Positions 5,155-48,960 of a stretch of 64,000 bases of DNA are shown here, in pieces. The notes under the pieces are model-generated. The model was not told the DNA's origin. It was given only the letters and a program-made list of their open reading frames with translations, and searched no databases. How positions within the stretch are numbered: the first letter of the stretch is position 1; each line of letters begins with the position of its first letter. A program made the position numbers and the translations under genes. The DNA lies in the NCBI GenBank assembly GCA_040386195.1, contig JAZKFV010000012.1:64342-128341 (forward strand), written 5' to 3'. The DNA is from Pseudomonadota bacterium (lineage in GTDB: Bacteria > Pseudomonadota > Alphaproteobacteria > Rickettsiales > UBA1997).

Positions 5155-5724
5155 TTAGACCTTTGGCAAAGTAACGCCAGTTTGCCCCATATATTTGCCG
5201 CTGCGGCTTAGATAAGAAGTTTGGCATTTTTCATTTCCTTTCAAAAATAAAAATTGGCAAGCGCCTTCAAAAGCGTAGATTTTGGCGGGCAGTGGAGTGG
5301 TGTTGGAAAATTCTAAAGTCACATGACCTTCCCAGCCTGGTTCTAGCGGTGTGACATTGACAATAATTCCGCATCTTGCATAAGTTGATTTGCCAACGCA
5401 AATTACTAAAACATCTTCAGGGATTTTAAAATATTCCACAGTTCTAGCCAGCGCAAAGCTGTTCGGTGGAATTATGCAAACATCAGTTTTGCGATCGACA
5501 AAACTATTCTCGGAAAAGTTTTTTGGATCAACAATTGCTGAATCTATGTTGGTGAAAATTTTAAATTCATCCGAAACTCGCGCATCATATCCATAAGAAG
5601 AATTGCCATAAGAAATTAATTTTTGACCATGCTCATCTTGCTTAGTTTGTTTGCCGACAAAAGGAGAAATCATTTGATGTTTTAGAGACATTTCTTCGAT
5701 CCAACGATCAGACATTATTGACAT
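5155..5724 (-). CDS. dcd: dCTP deaminase
   Basis: 189-aa ORF of typical Dcd length. The N-terminus (MSDRWIEEM) and the body ...SSYGYDARV...[18 protein letters not shown]...[10 protein letters not shown]...[10 protein letters not shown] match the family. Confidence 0.9.
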
Positions 5725-5841
5725 ATTTTAAGCTAAATAAATTATTAAAAATGGCGCGAAAACTTACTTGATTTAAAAGAATATTGCAAGTCTAATAGCC
5801 TCTTTATTTGCCTGCCTTAATTCATAAATAAATACCTCAAA

Positions 5842-7603: not shown

Positions 7604-9505
7604 ATGAAAACCACTAGAACTGAGGCTAAAATTAGTTTTAGTGATATTCCTGACGAGCTTAAAGCTTCAATATTTGGTGAATTAAGAAGTATAAAAGATC
7701 GAGAAAACCTGTCTTTGGTAGATAAAAAATATAGAAAACTTTTTCTAGATTATTTGAGGCAAAAAGAAGAGTTAGATTTAAAGAATATAGCTCAAATAGC
7801 CGAAAAAGATTTTGAGAAATTTACAAAATTTATTGTCAAAATCTTTGCTCAATCAACTCATCAACCCGCTGTTAGAATATCACTGCCTTCATGGATAAAT
7901 AATGATCAATTCAGACATATTATAGCAAGTCTGGGGTTTGAAAATATACAGCTTCTCAACATTAGCTATTGTCAAAAACTAGATCCAAAAACTATTGCAG
8001 AAGTTCTTACGCAATGCACCGCTCTTCAATCAGTTGACTTTGCAGGATTTGCAAGATTGACAGACCTTGATTTATCAAGGTTAGAGAATGTAACCCATCT
8101 TAATTTTACATCTTGTAGTCAAGTAAAAAATATTCAAGAAATTGTAAATCATTTATGTCCAAATGTTGTTGATATCAATTTTGCCCATTGTACTCAAATA
8201 GTAGAGCTAGTATTGCCAGAGAAAGAGAAGGTTAGACGCCTTAATTTCACAGGGTGTGATAAATTAACAACTCTTGATTTATCAAATCTAAAAAATCTTG
8301 AATCTATTAATTTGAGCGGGTGTAGACAGCTAGCAAATCTAACTCTGCCAACAAAGCTGGAAAATCTTAGACATCTTGATTTGAGTGGGTGTAGTCAGTT
8401 AGATATTCAAGCAATTTTAGAAAAATGTCCCAATGTCACATCTATTAATTTGAGCGGTTGTAGTCAATTAACAGATCTTGACTTATCAAAACTAAAAAAT
8501 CTTAAATCTATTAATGTGAGCAAGTGTGAAGAGCTAGTAAAATTAACTCTGCCATCACAGGTGGAAGAAATTACACATCTTGATTTGGGTGGGTGTCATA
8601 AATTAAATATTCAGGAGATTATAGAAAAATGTTCAAACGTTGTATCTATTGATTTGGGTGGGTGTATCAGATTAACAAAGCTCACATTACCAGTAATACA
8701 AAATGTGACCCATATTAGTTTTGCTAATTGTTATCAATTGTCACAATTCGACATTGAATTGATTCTGCAGAATTGTCCAAATGTTACATCTATTAATTTT
8801 GCTGGCTGTAAACAACTAACAAATCTTAGATTACCAAGAATGGAGAAAGTTACTCACATTAATTGTGGGAGATGTGATAGCTTATCAGATCAAGACGTTG
8901 GATTAATTCTAGAGAATTGTCCGAATGCTACATCTGTTAATTTTTTTGGTTGCAGCCAACTAGTCAGCCCTAGATTACCAAGAATGGAAAAGGCTACTAA
9001 TGTTAATTTTGGAAGATGTACTCAATTAAAAAATATTCAAGAAATTCTTAATCAATGTCCAAGTGTTAAATCTGTTGACATTGCAGGGTGTCAACAATTG
9101 CAAACTCTCAAACTATCAGCAAAAAATCTTGAATCGATTAATACCGTTGGATGTAATCAATTAAAGACCGTCACAATATCGGGAACTAGAAGCCTTAGAA
9201 GTATTAATCTGCCATCATGTGAGCGATTAACGACTGTTACAATATCAGGAGGGCCGGTAGATCTTGACGAAGTTCATTTTGGATCCAGTCCAAAATTAGC
9301 TACATTTAATATACCAAATGGCTCAAGAATAAATGGTATTGATGTGACTGGCGACAACTTACCAAGGGTTATAGATTTGCTAGGAAAAATACGTCCAAAA
9401 ATAAATATAACTGAACCCCAGCCAAACGCAGAAATTAAGGAGGCAGTTAACGCAGGCGTGTTGGGTAAAATGAGAGATCAAATGCGCAATATCTTTCACA
9501 AATGA
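7604..9505 (+). CDS. Eukaryote-like F-box protein with cysteine-containing leucine-rich repeats (FBXL/GALA-like)
   Basis: 633-aa ORF. The N-terminal FSDIPDELKASIFGELRSIKDRENLSLVDKKYRKLF fits the F-box consensus (LP.E....I...L...DL..L..V.K.W..L). About 18 repeats of roughly 25 aa follow, of the type L..L.L.GC.QLT. (for example LESINLSGCRQLANLTLP, LRHLDLSGCSQLDIQAI). Confidence 0.8.
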   Translation: MKTTRTEAKISFSDIPDELKASIFGELRSIKDRENLSLVDKKYRKLFLDYLRQKEELDLKNIAQIAEKDFEKFTKFIVKIFAQSTHQPAVRISLPSWINNDQFRHIIASLGFENIQLLNISYCQKLDPKTIAEVLTQCTALQSVDFAGFARLTDLDLSRLENVTHLNFTSCSQVKNIQEIVNHLCPNVVDINFAHCTQIVELVLPEKEKVRRLNFTGCDKLTTLDLSNLKNLESINLSGCRQLANLTLPTKLENLRHLDLSGCSQLDIQAILEKCPNVTSINLSGCSQLTDLDLSKLKNLKSINVSKCEELVKLTLPSQVEEITHLDLGGCHKLNIQEIIEKCSNVVSIDLGGCIRLTKLTLPVIQNVTHISFANCYQLSQFDIELILQNCPNVTSINFAGCKQLTNLRLPRMEKVTHINCGRCDSLSDQDVGLILENCPNATSVNFFGCSQLVSPRLPRMEKATNVNFGRCTQLKNIQEILNQCPSVKSVDIAGCQQLQTLKLSAKNLESINTVGCNQLKTVTISGTRSLRSINLPSCERLTTVTISGGPVDLDEVHFGSSPKLATFNIPNGSRINGIDVTGDNLPRVIDLLGKIRPKINITEPQPNAEIKEAVNAGVLGKMRDQMRNIFHK

Positions 9506-12415: not shown

Positions 12416-15400
12416 TTAAAACCCAAAATCCCCATCACTAAAATTAATTTTTCCGATCAAATTAATTACCAAATTATGGCTATCATTGCCGTCGTGATAT
12501 TCAATCACGGTATTTTGGTTTTGATCAAAATGATAACTTAAACCTTGTTCAATCACATTGTCATTTGGATTGGCGTCAAAGCTGATATGATGGTGGGCTA
12601 AATTAAGATTGTGAAGATTGATTTTGTCTTGTCCGCGCTGAAAATCAGCAATCAAATCACGGGCATTAATGGTGGAATCTGAGAAAGAATTAAAATTAAA
12701 AATATCTGCGCCAGCGCCACCAATCAGAAAATCTTGACCTTGATTACCAGTGATTTGATCTGCGCCCAAACCGCCGTTAATCATATTATTATTGGCATCG
12801 CCTGCTAAATTATCGTTGAAGTTAGAGCCGATAATATTTTCAATGTTCAGCAAAATATCACCAGCTGCTGCGCCGCCAATATTGAGATTGGTTTTCAGAT
12901 TCACTACAACAGCCGATGTAGAATCGGTATAAGATGCCGCGTCAATTCCAGCGCCGCCATCAATTTTATCAGCGCCAATTCCACCAATTATTGTATCATT
13001 ACCTTTACCGCCAGACAGAACATTGTTTTTATTATCGCCAACTAGGGTATCGTCAAAATTAGAGCCAGTGATATTTTCAATATTGAGCAACACATCACCC
13101 GCCGCCGCTCCGCCTTTATTGATATTAGTGGCGAGATTGATATTTATTGCTCTCAGAGAATCGACATAAGATGCCGTGTCAATTCCAGCTCCGCCATCAA
13201 TTTTATCAGCGCCAATTCCGCCAATTATTGTATCATTGCCAGCATTACCGTTGATAATATCGCTGCCCAAAGTGCCAAAAATATTATCGTTTCCAGCAGT
13301 GCCGTTAATAACATTACTGACAATATTCAAACTAAAATTTTGTGCTGCCGATAAGCTGCCATCGCTGGCAATAATGGTGATATCCAGATGGCTGGATGTT
13401 GCGGCTGGTGGGGTGCCGGTGAAAGTTTGGTTGCTGGCATTGAAGCTGAGCCAAGCAGGCAAAGCAGCGCCATTGGCGAGTTTGGCGCTGTAACGCAAGG
13501 TTGAATCAACATCACTAAAAATGTTATTTGGCAGTTTGAAGTTAAAATTATTTCCCGCTTGAGCAGTTTGATTATCAAGCTGAATTGCCACTATTGGCGC
13601 GTCGTTAATGGGCACCACATTAATATTGATGGTTTTGGTAATGCTGCCGCCATTGCCATCAATAATGGTATAATTAAAACTGTCGCTACCATTGTAATTA
13701 GCGCCAGGAGTATAGCTGATAGTTTGGCGATTAGTTTGGGGGTTAGTGATAATTCTGGCCGTGCCGTGAGCAGGGCTAGTGATTGAGCCGATTGACAGCA
13801 CATCACCAACATCAATATCGGCAGCCGCCGCCAGAACGTCAATGATTTTAGCAGTATCTTCATTGGTAGCGCTAACAACTAAATTAGCAGTTGGGTTGTG
13901 GTTAATTGATGGTGCAAAAGTAAAATTGCTGGCGCTTAGCTGGGTTTGATTGGGGTTGATAATGTCGATAATTTGCCCATTTGCTAAATTGATCACAGAA
14001 TGACCGGCAGCGTTGGTAATATTGAGGCTGGAAAAATTACGAATATTAGTCAAAGCAGAAAGATCAATTTTTTCATTAGGGTTGCTAAATTCAAAATCAG
14101 TAATTGTGGTTCGGCTGTTATTTGCGGCAGTAATAATAAATTGATCAGCACCCGCGCCGCCAATAATTATATCATTGCCACCGCCGGATTTAATAATGTC
14201 GTTACCCGCACCAGCACTAATTACATCATTGCCGCCCAGAGTAGTGATTTTGTCATCACCACCTTGGGCATCAATGAAATTGTTACCGGTATTTTGAGGA
14301 GTGATAATTTCGCTGAAGTTAGAGCCTTCTGTTTTATTGTAGGTGGTTTGGTTAATTTGTGTGGTTAATTGGGAAGAAAGATTAGGCAATAATGTAGCAA
14401 CTGAATTACCTTTAATGTTTTGAGCAAAATCAACAACTTTTTCGCCCTGAGCATCAAATTTCTGCATAAAAACTCCGTAGCCATCGCCATCTTTGCCACT
14501 ATTAGTCCAGCTTACTACAAAACCACCATCATTAAGAGCTTCTACTGCGGCAAACTGACTATTGCTATCAATCACATTAACCACTCCTAATTTATTGCCA
14601 TTAATATCAAATCTTTGGGTATAAACATTGTAGCTACTATCATTCCAGCTAACTACAAAATTACCATTTTTTAGGGATGTAACTGTTGATGGAATTGAAT
14701 TTTCAAGAAATCTACCGACCACAACTTCCGATCCAACTCGATTGCCGTTAGGATCAAATCTTTGCATCATAATTCCAACATGATTTGGATCACCTAAATT
14801 GCCACCATCATTCCATAAAAGAACGAAGCCGCCGTTATTAAGTGGTGCTAGCGCAGGATTGGTTTTGCTGTCACTATCGTTATTATTAAATGCAATTTCA
14901 GTGCCAATTTTATTGCCATTAGCATCAAATCTTTGCATAAAAATTGTGTTATTATGAGCAGAATTTTGATAATTCTGCCAAGCAACAACAAAGCCACCAT
15001 TATTTAAAGCAGTAATTGCGGGCTTGATTAAGCCAGAACTAATCTGTGTTTCTGAGCCCAATTTATTACCGCTAGCGTCAAATCTTTGCATAAAAACTCC
15101 GGAATTGTTATCCCAGCTAATCACAAAATTACCACTGCTCAATGTTGTAATTGATGGGTGGTAATGAAAATTAGTAATATTGGTATTAACCAGAGTTTCC
15201 GCTCCCAACTTATTGCCATTAACATCAAATCTTTGCATAAAAATTGCAGTGCGCTGATTATAATCTCCAGTCCAGGACATTACAAAACCACCATTGGGTA
15301 AATCAGTGATCGGCAAATAATCATTACTGCTATTATTGCTCACAAAAATTTCTGAGCCCAATTTATTGCCGTTAGCGTCAAATCTTTGCAAATAAGATCC

Positions 15401-16900
15401 TGAGGCATTGCCTTCACTAATCCAGTTAATTACAAATCCTCCATTGCTTAAATGAGTTATTGATTCGTTATATTGATAGCCTTGATTATAAGTATTAACC
15501 TGATTGCGGGCTGGTAAAGAAGTCAATAATCCGATGCCATAATCACCATTGTTAAAATCATTAATCACCACCAAATCAGAACTAGAATCACCAGCTTTAC
15601 CAGAAACAATAGTGAGCCGATTACCGGTCAAATGAAGTTGATACTGACTGCCTTCGATCATCATCTGATAAATTTTATCACCATTAGGATTGCCGCTATT
15701 GGTATGATCAATAATTAACTGTGCCAGACCGCTGATAACCTTACCATTAATCCGAATAACATCATTCTGACCTTGCTTATTTCCCAGCCCATCATCATTA
15801 ATAACATCCCGCCCAAAATTTCCGGAAAAAATATAAGTGTCAGCTCCGGTGCCACCATCTAATGTATCATTTCCATCATCACCATAAAGTTTATCGTTCC
15901 CACCTTCACCAAATATCACATCATTATTGCCATTACCGTGTATCGTATCTTGGGCGTTGGTTGCTCCCCAAATATAGTTGCTGGTGTTGTCTCCGTTTAT
16001 TGTTGCACCAGTTTGGTTTAGGTCGTGTGATCCGCCTAGATTCTGGTTTATATAGTTTATTTTTTGTGCATCGGTAAAGTTTTCTTTGATAAAATATAAA
16101 TCCCAGTAATGAGGATTTTGGTCGTAGGATTTAAAATAATCATAACCGCTACTTGGCCAAGAGGATGCTGTTGAATAGATTTTTGGTTCGCCAGTGGTCG
16201 GATTGAATTGACTCAGGATGCCAAGCATATCATGTTGCTTCAAAGTATAATTGATTAGATAACTGGCCGGAGAAGTTGCTGCTCCAGTTGTTCCGGGATC
16301 AAAGTCAGGATAAATTCTATAATTAATTCCAAAATCGTGAGGATTTGTTGTGTTCACCAAATTTGGTGAGGTCATATAATTAGATATGTTGATACGTGAT
16401 GCTAAATTGGGATTCAAACTATAATTTAAAATCTCATTTGCCATTCCCAAAGTTACTCCGGGGCTATCAAACACAACTGCTTTTGCTCCTGTGCTACCAT
16501 TTTTAAAATCTTCAATGGCACTGAGTTGAGCGAGAACTCCACCTAAAGAATGACCGGTGTAGCTGATGTTGTTCAAATTCAAACCTTCTAGAGTCATTTG
16601 GGCTTTTACTTGTGAGACGAATTGAGTTAGGTCGTTAGTGTATTGGGTGGGGATTTGGTCGAGGGCGAGTTGGAGATCGGCTACGAATAGATCTGTGGAT
16701 AAAAATCCTTCAGTTCCTCTATGAGCAATCACTATTTCACCCGTAGAACGATTAATGTAAGCTTGCCCAGAATAGCCATCAACATTGGTATTTTCTGAAT
16801 CAGATGTTCTATATATTTCCCAACCAGAAGGAAGAAATACTGTTGAATTATGGTATACAAATTTGCTAAATATTGCATAATCGCGAGATGAAATAGTCAT
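12416..16900 (-). CDS. Giant secreted protein: N-terminal class-3 lipase / alpha-beta hydrolase, RTX Ca-binding nonapeptides, roughly 50-aa propeller-like repeats, cadherin/He_PIG-like Ig domains, and a C-terminal RTX block (T1SS-substrate architecture)
   Basis: 1494-aa ORF. It has the nucleophile elbow YTGHSLGGVLAQL and GGxGxD nonapeptides (GNGNNDVIFGEGGNDKLYGDDGNDTLDGGTGAD). About 8 repeats contain (F/I)MQRFDxNGNKLGSE...NGGFVxSW. Further on are VVPINDAPIV and LPAWLSFNASNQTFTGTP. The C-terminus has repeated GNDTIIGGIGADKIDGGAGID and no Cys-rich end. Confidence 0.85.
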   Translation of the reverse strand: MTISSRDYAIFSKFVYHNSTVFLPSGWEIYRTSDSENTNVDGYSGQAYINRSTGEIVIAHRGTEGFLSTDLFVADLQLALDQIPTQYTNDLTQFVSQVKAQMTLEGLNLNNISYTGHSLGGVLAQLSAIEDFKNGSTGAKAVVFDSPGVTLGMANEILNYSLNPNLASRINISNYMTSPNLVNTTNPHDFGINYRIYPDFDPGTTGAATSPASYLINYTLKQHDMLGILSQFNPTTGEPKIYSTASSWPSSGYDYFKSYDQNPHYWDLYFIKENFTDAQKINYINQNLGGSHDLNQTGATINGDNTSNYIWGATNAQDTIHGNGNNDVIFGEGGNDKLYGDDGNDTLDGGTGADTYIFSGNFGRDVINDDGLGNKQGQNDVIRINGKVISGLAQLIIDHTNSGNPNGDKIYQMMIEGSQYQLHLTGNRLTIVSGKAGDSSSDLVVINDFNNGDYGIGLLTSLPARNQVNTYNQGYQYNESITHLSNGGFVINWISEGNASGSYLQRFDANGNKLGSEIFVSNNSSNDYLPITDLPNGGFVMSWTGDYNQRTAIFMQRFDVNGNKLGAETLVNTNITNFHYHPSITTLSSGNFVISWDNNSGVFMQRFDASGNKLGSETQISSGLIKPAITALNNGGFVVAWQNYQNSAHNNTIFMQRFDANGNKIGTEIAFNNNDSDSKTNPALAPLNNGGFVLLWNDGGNLGDPNHVGIMMQRFDPNGNRVGSEVVVGRFLENSIPSTVTSLKNGNFVVSWNDSSYNVYTQRFDINGNKLGVVNVIDSNSQFAAVEALNDGGFVVSWTNSGKDGDGYGVFMQKFDAQGEKVVDFAQNIKGNSVATLLPNLSSQLTTQINQTTYNKTEGSNFSEIITPQNTGNNFIDAQGGDDKITTLGGNDVISAGAGNDIIKSGGGNDIIIGGAGADQFIITAANNSRTTITDFEFSNPNEKIDLSALTNIRNFSSLNITNAAGHSVINLANGQIIDIINPNQTQLSASNFTFAPSINHNPTANLVVSATNEDTAKIIDVLAAAADIDVGDVLSIGSITSPAHGTARIITNPQTNRQTISYTPGANYNGSDSFNYTIIDGNGGSITKTININVVPINDAPIVAIQLDNQTAQAGNNFNFKLPNNIFSDVDSTLRYSAKLANGAALPAWLSFNASNQTFTGTPPAATSSHLDITIIASDGSLSAAQNFSLNIVSNVINGTAGNDNIFGTLGSDIINGNAGNDTIIGGIGADKIDGGAGIDTASYVDSLRAININLATNINKGGAAAGDVLLNIENITGSNFDDTLVGDNKNNVLSGGKGNDTIIGGIGADKIDGGAGIDAASYTDSTSAVVVNLKTNLNIGGAAAGDILLNIENIIGSNFNDNLAGDANNNMINGGLGADQITGNQGQDFLIGGAGADIFNFNSFSDSTINARDLIADFQRGQDKINLHNLNLAHHHISFDANPNDNVIEQGLSYHFDQNQNTVIEYHDGNDSHNLVINLIGKINFSDGDFGF
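14400..15470 (-). repeat. Intragenic tandem repeats of about 150 nt (propeller-blade-like units) inside the lipase-RTX gene
   Basis: The plus-strand motif TCAAATCTTTGCATAAAAA (antisense of FMQRFD) recurs roughly every 150 nt, near 14455, 14600, 14750, 14925, 15075, 15225 and 15375. Confidence 0.8.
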
Positions 16901-17582: not shown

Positions 17583-18158
17583 TTATTTCTGATATTGTTT
17601 ATGGCGGTTTTTCTTGCGATATTGTTTTGGCTCCTCAAAGGCGCCTTGCCAAACTCCTAATTTTTTATTTTTTGCCTCAATTTCTAAATTTTTTAATTCG
17701 TCATCAGCATCTTTTAAATTATAAATAATCGCCATTCCGTTTTTTACCATTTCATAATTGATGTTAATTTCACCGAGTTTGCAATTGCCTAAAAAGCGTT
17801 GGTAAATATCTTTTTCTTCATAGCTGCACTGGACATTTTTATTGCTGATTAAATTCTTCAAAAAAGCAGTAGAAACTTCGCCGCATAAATATTCAAAATA
17901 ATTTTTATCCAAACATTTTTGTTTAGTTTCTGGCGCGTCAATTAAGATTAAGCGAATGCGGTTTTTGTTGATTTCGATAGTGTCGCCGTCGATGACTCGG
18001 GCGAGGCCAGAGATAATAGTCGTAAGTCGTGAGTCGTAAGTCGTAAGTGGGGGGTTTGATTCTTGATTTTGATTTTTGGTAGCAAAAGAAACCCACCAAA
18101 AAAATAAAGCAAAAAAAAGTATAATTAAAAGAAGAGAAGTATTTTTATATTTCAACAT
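17583..18158 (-). CDS. Secreted staphylococcal-nuclease (SNase/thermonuclease)-like nuclease
   Basis: 191-aa ORF with an N-terminal signal/TM segment (SLLLIILFFALFFWWVSFA). The SNase core motifs are ARVIDGDTIEI...IRLILIDAPE...YQRFLGNC...GMA...KKLGVW. Confidence 0.8.
   Translation of the reverse strand: MLKYKNTSLLLIILFFALFFWWVSFATKNQNQESNPPLTTYDSRLTTIISGLARVIDGDTIEINKNRIRLILIDAPETKQKCLDKNYFEYLCGEVSTAFLKNLISNKNVQCSYEEKDIYQRFLGNCKLGEININYEMVKNGMAIIYNLKDADDELKNLEIEAKNKKLGVWQGAFEEPKQYRKKNRHKQYQK
18018..18048 (+). repeat. Heptanucleotide microsatellite (AGTCGTA)n, about 4.4 units, inside the SNase-like coding sequence
   Basis: Read directly as AGTCGTA AGTCGTG AGTCGTA AGTCGTA AGT, followed by a G6 run (18049-18054). 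On the coding strand it encodes PPLTTYDSRLTTII. Confidence 0.9.
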
Positions 18159-18159
18159 T

Positions 18160-18196
18160 TTACGACTTACAACTTACGACTTACGACTTACGACTA
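18160..18196 (-). repeat. Heptanucleotide microsatellite (AGTCGTA/GTCGTAA)n, about 5 units, inverted copy in the ilvE-nuclease intergenic spacer
   Basis: The plus strand reads TTACGAC TTACAAC TTACGAC TTACGAC TTACGAC TA, the reverse complement of the 18018-18048 array. It ends 1-2 nt before the nuclease ATG (18156-18158). Confidence 0.9.
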
Positions 18197-18201
18197 TTAT
18201 A

Positions 18202-19083
18202 TTATTTCCTAACCAAATCATGATAAGCCTGCATCAAATCTAAAGTCATTTGGCTGGCTTCTGGATAAAAATATTGATCAGCAACGGCGCCAATTCTAGT
18301 TAATTCGGCAGCGCTGCCAGTTAGAAATGCGTCTTTAGCATCGGCTAATTCTTCGGGCATAATGTGTCTTTCAACGACTTTAATTCCCATTTCTTTAGCT
18401 AATTCGATAACGGTTTGTCTGGTTAAACCATTCAAAAAACAATCTGGTTTTGGCGTGTGCAATTCACCATTTTTCATCACCAAAAATAAATTGGCGCCAG
18501 TTGCTTCGGCCAAATAGCCGCGATAATCGAGCATCAATGCGTCGTTATAGCCAGCGTTTTCAGCTTCGTGTTTGCTGATAGTGCAAATCATATAAAGTCC
18601 GGCAGCTTTGGAAGCGGTTGGTGCGCTTTCTGGGGAAGGGCGTTTGTATTTGGCGAAAGTTAATTTCAAACCAACTTTGCGCGCTTCGTCAGAATAATAA
18701 GGAGGCCAAGGCCAGCAGGCAATTGCGGTGTGAATTTTATTTCCTTGCGCTGAGATTGCCATTTTTTCAGAACCGCGCCACGCAAAGCAACGCATATAAC
18801 CATCAACAATATTTTGTTTTTTTGCAGTTTCTTTTTTTGCCGTATCTAACTGCTCAACTGAATAAGGAACTTTGAAGCCAAGCATATCAGCAGATCTATG
18901 CAAACGAGCGCTGTGATCGGTGCATTTGAAAATTTTGCCGTTATAAATTCTTTCACCTTCAAACACGCAAGAAGCATAATGCAAACCGTGATTAAGCACG
19001 TGAACTTTAGCATCTTTCCAAGGAACAAATTCGCCATTATACCAAATATAGCCGTCGCGCTGATCGAAAGGAATAATATCCAT
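18202..19083 (-). CDS. ilvE: Branched-chain amino acid aminotransferase
   Basis: 293-aa ORF of class-IV aminotransferase length. Motifs include HVLNHGLHYASCVFEGERIY and EATGANLFLV. Confidence 0.9.
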   Translation of the reverse strand: MDIIPFDQRDGYIWYNGEFVPWKDAKVHVLNHGLHYASCVFEGERIYNGKIFKCTDHSARLHRSADMLGFKVPYSVEQLDTAKKETAKKQNIVDGYMRCFAWRGSEKMAISAQGNKIHTAIACWPWPPYYSDEARKVGLKLTFAKYKRPSPESAPTASKAAGLYMICTISKHEAENAGYNDALMLDYRGYLAEATGANLFLVMKNGELHTPKPDCFLNGLTRQTVIELAKEMGIKVVERHIMPEELADAKDAFLTGSAAELTRIGAVADQYFYPEASQMTLDLMQAYHDLVRK

Positions 19084-48914: not shown

Positions 48915-48960
48915 AGTCGTAAGTCGTAAGTCGTAAGTCGTAAGTCGTAAGTCGTAAGTA
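48915..48960 (+). repeat. Heptanucleotide microsatellite (AGTCGTA)6.5 in the pgsA-topA spacer
   Basis: Read directly as six perfect AGTCGTA units plus AGTA. It starts 6 nt after the pgsA stop and ends 12 nt before the topA ATG. Confidence 0.95.

Follow-up and report, generated by a model that had tools for sequence, protein, structure and literature searches.

A 64-kb stretch of a Rickettsiales contig (JAZKFV010000012.1; hereafter the window, meaning the whole stretch analysed, on whose numbering all coordinates are given) contains an intact gene for a 191-amino-acid SNase-family nuclease (thermonuclease/YncB-like; 17583..18158, minus strand) whose start is bracketed by two inverted arrays of the heptamer AGTCGTA. 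One array fills the spacer between the nuclease gene and an upstream, co-directional branched-chain/class IV aminotransferase gene (ilvE-like; 18202..19083, minus strand), and the other is translated in frame as part of the nuclease. The two arms are complementary over almost their whole length, are predicted to pair in the mRNA over the ribosome-binding region, and keep this pairing in related species. The reading that we favour, with about even confidence, is a lineage-conserved, cis-acting mRNA stem of heptameric repeats that locks initiation of nuclease translation. Its main rival is neutral maintenance of the repeat by processes acting on DNA, such as template switching.

Anatomy of the inverted heptamer repeat

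Tandem Repeats Finder identifies an (AGTCGTA) array of 4.4 copies at 18018-18048 (91% matches), adjoined by a G6 run read from the sequence at 18049-18054, and a (TTACGAC) array of 5.1 copies at 18160-18195 (93% matches; outer edge about 18195-18196), both where a preliminary description of this DNA had placed them. Gene coordinates (nuclease ATG at 18158-18156 on the minus strand; ilvE-like stop at 18204-18202) and a repeat search confirm its 43-nt ilvE-nuclease spacer, the single nucleotide between the upstream array and the ATG, and the distance of ~116 nt between the arms. The inverted repeat proves slightly larger than was noted there, with arms of 36 nt each at 18013-18048 and 18165-18200 that are 94% complementary and lie 116 nt apart; complementarity reaches 5 nt past the heptamer arrays (ATAAT/ATTAT). 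An RNA fold of the region agrees with the near-complete pairing first described, giving 35 pairs, one A-C mismatch and one G-U pair. Read on the gene strand, the 5' arm (18165..18200, minus strand) is ATAAT(AGTCGTA)n, fills the spacer and carries TAA in all three frames. The 3' arm (18013..18048, minus strand) is the in-frame intragenic array in TTACGAC orientation plus ATTAT, and encodes LTTYDSRLTTII, within the linker that joins the signal anchor to the SNase domain. Translation confirms the in-array peptide PLTTYDSRLTT, and the earlier statement that the GTCGTAA orientation places TAA in all three frames while the coding orientation is open in all is correct. The 116-nt loop (18049..18164, minus strand) comprises the final spacer nucleotides and the start codon of the nuclease, together with its codons 1-36 (n-region, hydrophobic signal/anchor and NQNQESNPP).

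This repeat feature is real and non-random. The window has 12 14-mers of the AGTCGTA unit with at most two mismatches, against a mean of 0.08 in dinucleotide shuffles, none of which (0/100) reaches 12. The region folds at -72.4 kcal/mol as RNA, against -35.6 +/- 4.0 in shuffles (z = -9.2), and at -38.8 kcal/mol as single-stranded DNA (z = -9.05). Only three good short-period (5-11 nt) arrays occur in the 64 kb, all of the AGTCGTA unit, and two of the three are intergenic. The third is a solo perfect array, (AGTCGTA)6.4 at 48915..48959 on the plus strand, which takes up most of the 63 nt that separate the stop of pgsA from the start of topA; its sense orientation is that of the nuclease 5' arm, and no inverted partner for it was found within the window. 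In the closest relative, the pgsA-topA contig (L214; pgsA 94% identical) stops exactly at the start of this array, an end compatible with a break of the assembly at the repeat.

A Pfam match (PF00565, E = 6.8e-21, residues 67-171) confirms the SNase-like identity first assigned to the nuclease. Its 119 homologues have a common plan of N-terminal hydrophobic anchor, variable linker and SNase domain, and the catalytic-core columns of the alignment are invariant; the closest homologues are full length, 57-81% identical, and come from Rickettsiales/Rickettsiaceae metagenome-assembled genomes. The aminotransferase was assigned by domain search, and its synteny with the nuclease is kept in relatives. 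No promoter-like site, terminator-like site or Rfam family was found in the ilvE-nuclease spacer, so the two genes are probably co-transcribed.

A predicted mRNA stem over the nuclease start and its conservation

In the folded window RNA, the stem pairs positions -42 to -7 relative to the AUG and so covers the ribosome-binding region. Opening positions -20..+15 is predicted to cost 27.6 kcal/mol in the full transcript with the stem, versus 8.8 kcal/mol before the 3' arm is transcribed and 7.2 +/- 0.6 kcal/mol when the 3' arm is shuffled. With 35 predicted pairs and one mismatch, the helix is predicted to be stable double-stranded RNA, continuous over at least ~20 bp. The proposal in the preliminary description that the mRNA forms a duplex enclosing the start codon thus draws support from the predicted fold, from the opening energies and from a helix common to five species.

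Conservation of pairing was assessed in five arm-bearing related species. The RNAalifold consensus contains a 25-pair long-range helix present in all five, in which 88.5% of cells are paired, compared with 12-53% when the partners are slid. Double-sided changes affect 8 pairs, against 3.3 +/- 1.4 in shuffles (1/500 shuffles reach 8), and the covariation score is 0.248 versus 0.143 (0/500 reach the observed value). The clearest covariation is a swap of whole units, AGTCGTA/TTACGAC in the window versus AGTCGTT/TAACGAC in L122; L207 contributes A-U to G-C changes. Arm-arm duplexes are better than those of shuffled arms in 5/5 species (z = -13, -7.4, -3, -6.3 and -3.6). Pairwise identity in the non-coding 5' arm is 0.70, versus 0.56 at four-fold synonymous sites of the same gene.

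Several observations weigh against a translational lock. The whole-region folds of the relatives are far weaker than that of the window (z = -3.6, -3.2 and -2.7), and therefore selection, if any, is not uniformly strong; the arms of L123 barely exceed shuffles. A matrix of cognate versus non-cognate arm duplex energies has no clear diagonal signal, the window excepted. Cells that are not Watson-Crick pairs include 6 G-U and 5 A-C, so that in these small numbers G-U has no excess and the strand asymmetry expected of RNA-level selection, which would distinguish it from DNA-level homogenisation, is absent. The covariation comes from just five related sequences, with the tested structure taken from the same alignment, and 3/8 double changes are one unit-level swap repeated in three units. 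Homogenisation at the DNA level alone, without function, could yield the same covariation. The idea of an RNA lock is one that in silico evidence and the relatives support but leave unproven.

Ancestry of the two arms and a proposed mechanism

The closest relative (P0002) and P0009 were available as gene tables only, without DNA. A metagenome scan returned mainly distant marine SNases without the linker, the useful ones being L126-L129 only. An exact-protein search with the nuclease gave no match, and a search with ilvE gave one contig only, 100% identical to the window.

The linker of several close relatives reads LTTNDSQLTT, LTTDLRLTT, LTTNDLPLTT, FTTSNLQLTT or ITTQNSQLTT, peptides that are decayed translations of (TTACGAC)n. 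A four-unit period-7 block lies directly 5' of the conserved ISG codons in the orthologues L122, L124, L123, L206 and L211. Its units are CTAACGA CTAACGA CTCACAA CTAACGA in L122, CTAACGA CTAACGA CTTACCA CTAACAA in L124, and CTAATAA CTAATAA TTCACAA CTAATAA in L211, whose nuclease protein is only 57% identical; L206 has TCACAAC-type units, and L123 has the four-unit layout minus 3 nt (a deletion). The variant third unit stays in the same place across these orthologous arrays. Judged by this layout, the intragenic array is old and orthologous across Rickettsiales nucleases down to 57% protein identity. In the arm-less L211 and L206, units 1, 2 and 4 carry the same CG-to-TA or CG-to-CA changes and unit 3 is distinct, a pattern that reads as parallel CpG decay or as concerted change without a partner arm.

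The upstream arm has a narrower distribution. In the arm-less L126, L127, L128, L129, L206 and L209, the ilvE stop overlaps a GTG start of the nuclease (ATAGTG) and there is no spacer; the gene table of P0009 gives the same overlap. In the window, L122, L123, L124/L125 and L207/L208, a heptamer-periodic insert of 33-48 nt lies exactly at the ilvE-nuclease junction, and the nuclease N-terminus of arm-bearing orthologues is ~4 residues shorter. P0002 has a 43-nt spacer, as in the window. Because the 3' array occurs without a 5' arm in L206, L209 and L211, the arms did not arrive together. The 116-nt loop has a homologue in the N-terminus of arm-less relatives, in protein as well as in DNA, which identifies it by comparison as native gene sequence and not mobile-element cargo. 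On the same comparative grounds, the upstream arm is younger than the intragenic array and is an insertion common to a sub-clade. Its origin as an inverted copy of the linker segment fits the complementarity that runs past the array into adjacent native codons, seen in the window and also in L207 (AAATAG/CTATTT).

Two of the arm-bearing relatives have further features in this spacer. In L124 (2745-2960), a palindromic insertion of ~210 nt with terminal inverted repeats TAATTTTGCTCAAATTTTTCTGC...GCAGAAAAATTTGAGCAAAATTTA lengthens the spacer between the ilvE stop and the 5' arm, and looks like a MITE (miniature inverted-repeat transposable element) or an insertion of the Rickettsia palindromic element (RPE) type. 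In L122 (71-88), the decayed 5' arm and the nuclease start are separated by an upstream open reading frame of five codons (ATG AAA AAA GTA GGA TGA), whose stop overlaps the ATG of the nuclease (ATGA) and which may be a secondary coupling device there.

The mechanism that we propose would start from the old in-frame heptamer array in the nuclease linker, which joins signal anchor and SNase domain. In the ancestor of the sub-clade, an inverted linker copy with a few flanking coding bases would have inserted between the ilvE stop and the nuclease start, displacing the overlapping stop/start (ATAGTG) that gave translational coupling. In the ilvE-nuclease transcript, the arms would then form a duplex of ~35 bp that buries -42 to -7 and encloses the first 36 codons. 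Once the 3' arm had been transcribed, de novo ribosome loading would be strongly disfavoured, and nuclease synthesis would depend solely on ribosomes that load during transcription or come from ilvE. Duplexes of 35 bp are classic targets of RNase III; the stem is predicted to be a substrate as well, and the cut would fall in codons 37-48 of the nuclease message. The net outcome would be tight down-regulation of a potentially harmful exported nuclease. The arms' anatomy and ancestry, their conservation and covariation, and the energetics are results of the analysis; we infer that the stem forms in vivo, that RNase III would cleave it and that its retention would carry a selective benefit. If the stem is functional, the locus illustrates how, in an obligate intracellular lineage, evolution can pass in a simple way from coupled translation to a structural gate on an exported nuclease that may be toxic. 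The pair is in any case a rare datable one, with an old in-frame arm and a younger upstream arm that persist with compensatory changes across species, and it is tied to a testable consequence, the sequestration of a translation start formerly coupled to the upstream gene.

Alternative explanations and known heptamer repeats

Three AGTCGTA units are found at >120 genome loci (L001-L120 among them) in Cyanobacteria, Bacteroidota, Chloroflexota, Proteobacteria, Patescibacteria, Planctomycetota and others. Within 840 kb around these loci, period 7 is the only over-represented short period, with 235 perfect arrays of at least three units (68 unit classes) versus 0-20 for each of the other periods from 4 to 12. 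Long open frames contain 13% of the arrays across phyla, versus 43% of random segments. Inverted partners within 600 nt are always ordered AGTCGTA...TACGACT (43 versus 0), a polarity that neighbouring gene orientation, tested across loci, does not explain; for other units there are too few pairs to generalise the rule. Long-loop pairs in other phyla show no general bracketing of gene starts. A candidate '3'-UTR sense rule' (UTR, untranslated region) for arrays across phyla was rejected after a stricter count that avoids bias from the array's own stop codons (17 versus 22). For the AGTCGTA unit itself, we found no bacterial report in the literature, only unrelated eukaryotic matches.

Some of these loci have features of their own. 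Heptamer-arm pairs at 5676-5780 and 7304-7409 of L021, from one genome, have a common loop motif, TTCTTCACGCT, and arm pairs at 2405-2504 and 5854-5944 of L109 surround a GC-rich terminator-like hairpin; both hint at local families of arm-loop-arm elements. In L068 (3668-3930), mixed heptamer arrays are traversed by an open frame with the reading ...SRLKTQDLRLTT..., with a neuO-type unit (AAGACTC, peptide RLKTQDS) beside the AGTCGTA unit, the two being two bases apart per unit.

In the neutral explanation, bacteria overproduce period-7 arrays, mutation alone makes convergent inverted pairs arise and persist, and the RNA stem is a tolerated, unselected side effect. Template switching within the molecule (quasipalindrome correction), or gene conversion, for example with the topA array, would then keep the arms complementary. 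We regard this explanation as possible, with a limited though real chance of being correct. It would account for the excess of period 7 and the spread of the unit over many phyla, and also for partner arms being common, often with one long and the other decayed, and for the decaying arms of the nuclease relatives. It is further favoured by the symmetry of G-U and A-C cells, by the unit that the window arms share with the solo topA array, and by published cases of heptameric simple sequence repeat (SSR) excess and convergent pairs without known function (PMC4692102, PMC2700814). Against it, the 5' arm is better conserved than four-fold sites, and pairing is kept despite nearly saturated synonymous-site divergence. 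The fixed unit number and the variant third unit argue against active slippage turnover, and the ~19 kcal/mol that the stem is predicted to add to opening of the initiation region would hardly be neutral for expression.

A second explanation, which we think unlikely, is that a sequence-specific activity not yet recognised, for instance a repair enzyme, an enzyme that adds repeats or a factor that binds heptamers, installs or maintains period-7 arrays. It is suggested by the recurrence of AGTCGTA across phyla with constant inverted-pair polarity, by unit changes that occur in concert on both nuclease arms and in non-adjacent units between species, and by the match of the window arms' unit to the distant topA array. 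If it were true, that system would have the nuclease stem among its conserved products.

The preliminary description had also proposed a contingency locus, in which the intragenic array would gain or lose units by strand slippage and so switch the nuclease ON and OFF by frameshift. The frame arithmetic of that proposal stands: the 7-nt unit, not a multiple of 3, lies in codons 38-48, and in silico a change of one or two units truncates the product at 67-75 amino acids whereas a change of three keeps the frame. Precedent exists in neuO, a coding heptamer switch with an AAGACTC repeat in the 5' coding region (PMC13001214), and the contig break of L214 is compatible with length heterogeneity, at the topA array. 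The switch itself is very unlikely, since the tract has only 4.4 variant-interrupted units with a longest perfect run of 17 nt, and known heptamer switches are far longer and polymorphic (PMC13001214, PMC12721329). In a comparison of assemblies and orthologues, unit number does not vary. The window, L122, L124, L206 and L211 (57-81% protein identity) share the orthologous layout of four units with the variant in third place, and species differ in length by multiples of 3 nt. Intact, in-frame reading frames are found in all of the 40+ homologues. Over 8.6 kb, an independent Logan assembly of this organism matches the window exactly, and contigs of the same species from other samples are free of indels; neither polymorphic unit numbers nor OFF alleles were seen among the homologues, assemblies and samples compared. 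The locus cautions that a non-triplet repeat within a gene is not automatically a phase switch.

Inversion of the 116-bp segment by arm recombination, which would disconnect or swap the start codon and signal peptide, or extrusion of a cruciform, was likewise raised at first and is extremely improbable. The segment is flanked by a 36-bp inverted repeat, its DNA strand folds strongly, and in silico inversion at the 116-nt register leaves the window frame open into the SNase domain. Against this, the segment has a single orientation in the window, the Logan contig and the four other arm-bearing species (five species and two assemblies in all). No recombinase, which invertible segments of the fim/hin type have nearby, is among the genes at the locus (MltA, CinA, the aminotransferase, the SNase, an unknown 118-amino-acid protein and an RTX-like protein). 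The inverted alternative frame is closed in 4/4 orthologues and register-dependent in the window, and cruciform extrusion across a 116-bp spacer is kinetically unlikely.

A mobile element (MITE, foldback or RPE-like) with the heptamer arrays as terminal inverted repeats is equally improbable: the fixed outside-to-inside polarity of arms, typical of terminal inverted repeats (43 convergent versus 0 divergent pairs across phyla), the common loop motif within the L021 genome and the separate palindromic insertion in the L124 spacer would suit it, and the work of Ogata and colleagues in Science in 2000 reportedly indicates that Rickettsia genomes tolerate in-frame palindromic elements, but the interior is native N-terminal coding sequence present in arm-less relatives, the 3' array without a 5' arm in some relatives shows that the two arms did not arrive together, no target-site duplication was seen at the locus, and heptamer arrays had only 4 matches among 2.9 million viral contigs.

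Elsewhere in the window, a gene at 12416-16900 (minus strand) encodes a 1494-amino-acid protein whose N-terminus resembles a lipase/phospholipase and which also has cadherin/Big-type domains and RTX (HemolysinCabind) repeats, and long tandem repeats with periods of 204 nt and 144 nt occupy 8241-9019, ~3.4 kb past the end of that gene. Such effector-like content is typical of an intracellular Rickettsiales genome.

The mRNA stem that we favour can be set beside several known systems. Cyanobacterial 7-bp short tandemly repeated repetitive (STRR) sequences form hairpins between co-transcribed genes, such as hupS-hupL, with a proposed role in transcript stability or translational coupling (PMC2670836). 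The nuclease repeat resembles them in its dispersed tandem 7-bp units, in its position in a spacer between genes that are probably co-transcribed and in its capacity to form a hairpin. It differs in belonging to Rickettsiales, in its AGTCGTA unit, in having one arm translated in frame, in its 116-nt coding loop that includes the start codon, and in cross-species conservation with covariation. The heptameric SSRs of Xanthomonas and Nostoc (GGGAATC / GGGGAYT) and the heptanucleotide families of Geobacter metallireducens show an excess of period 7, are mostly intergenic, form convergent stem-loop pairs and lie between the same genes in related species (PMC4692102, PMC2700814). All of these properties recur here: the window has three dispersed arrays of exact 7-bp tandem units, and the window and cross-phylum counts alike give mostly intergenic arrays, often in convergent, hairpin-capable pairs; gene neighbours are the same in relatives. 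However, those genomes have units rich in G (G-quadruplex-forming) or in GC, and their repeats reportedly differ in length from one close relative to another, whereas unit number is fixed here, and the nuclease pair brackets a translation start.

In Haemophilus influenzae, the (ATCTTTC)n hairpin in the hmw1A 5'-UTR has at least 11 units and is cleaved by RNase III (PMC12721329). As proposed for the nuclease gene, a heptanucleotide repeat is there one arm of a long mRNA hairpin upstream of an exported-protein gene, and the double-stranded RNA is a regulatory element (PMC12721329). The hmw1A repeat is hypervariable and pairs with a non-repeat, G-rich UTR arm, and its cleavage raises expression; in the nuclease gene both arms are invariant repeats of 4-5 units and one is coding, so that cleavage would destroy the message. 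The neuO gene of Escherichia coli K1 phage CUS-3 has 3-53 units of (AAGACTC)n, and 65.6% of genomes are phase-OFF (PMC13001214). It shares with the nuclease a heptanucleotide repeat in the 5' coding region, a heptad peptide and a frame kept only at multiples of 3 (PMC13001214). Unlike neuO, the nuclease has four interrupted units that are orthologously fixed and always in frame.

RPEs, said to have been described by Ogata and colleagues in Science in 2000 as inserted in frame in genes, are mobile units of 100-150 bp that are inserted whole. Like them, the nuclease repeat is palindromic repeat DNA tolerated within an open reading frame of the same bacterial order, with a neutral peptide in a permissive region. 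Unlike them, it has a native interior and arms that are simple heptamer arrays of different ages. Heptameric repeats are the one class of bacterial simple repeat known to be over-represented yet functionally unexplained. The stem at the nuclease start is a variant within this class.

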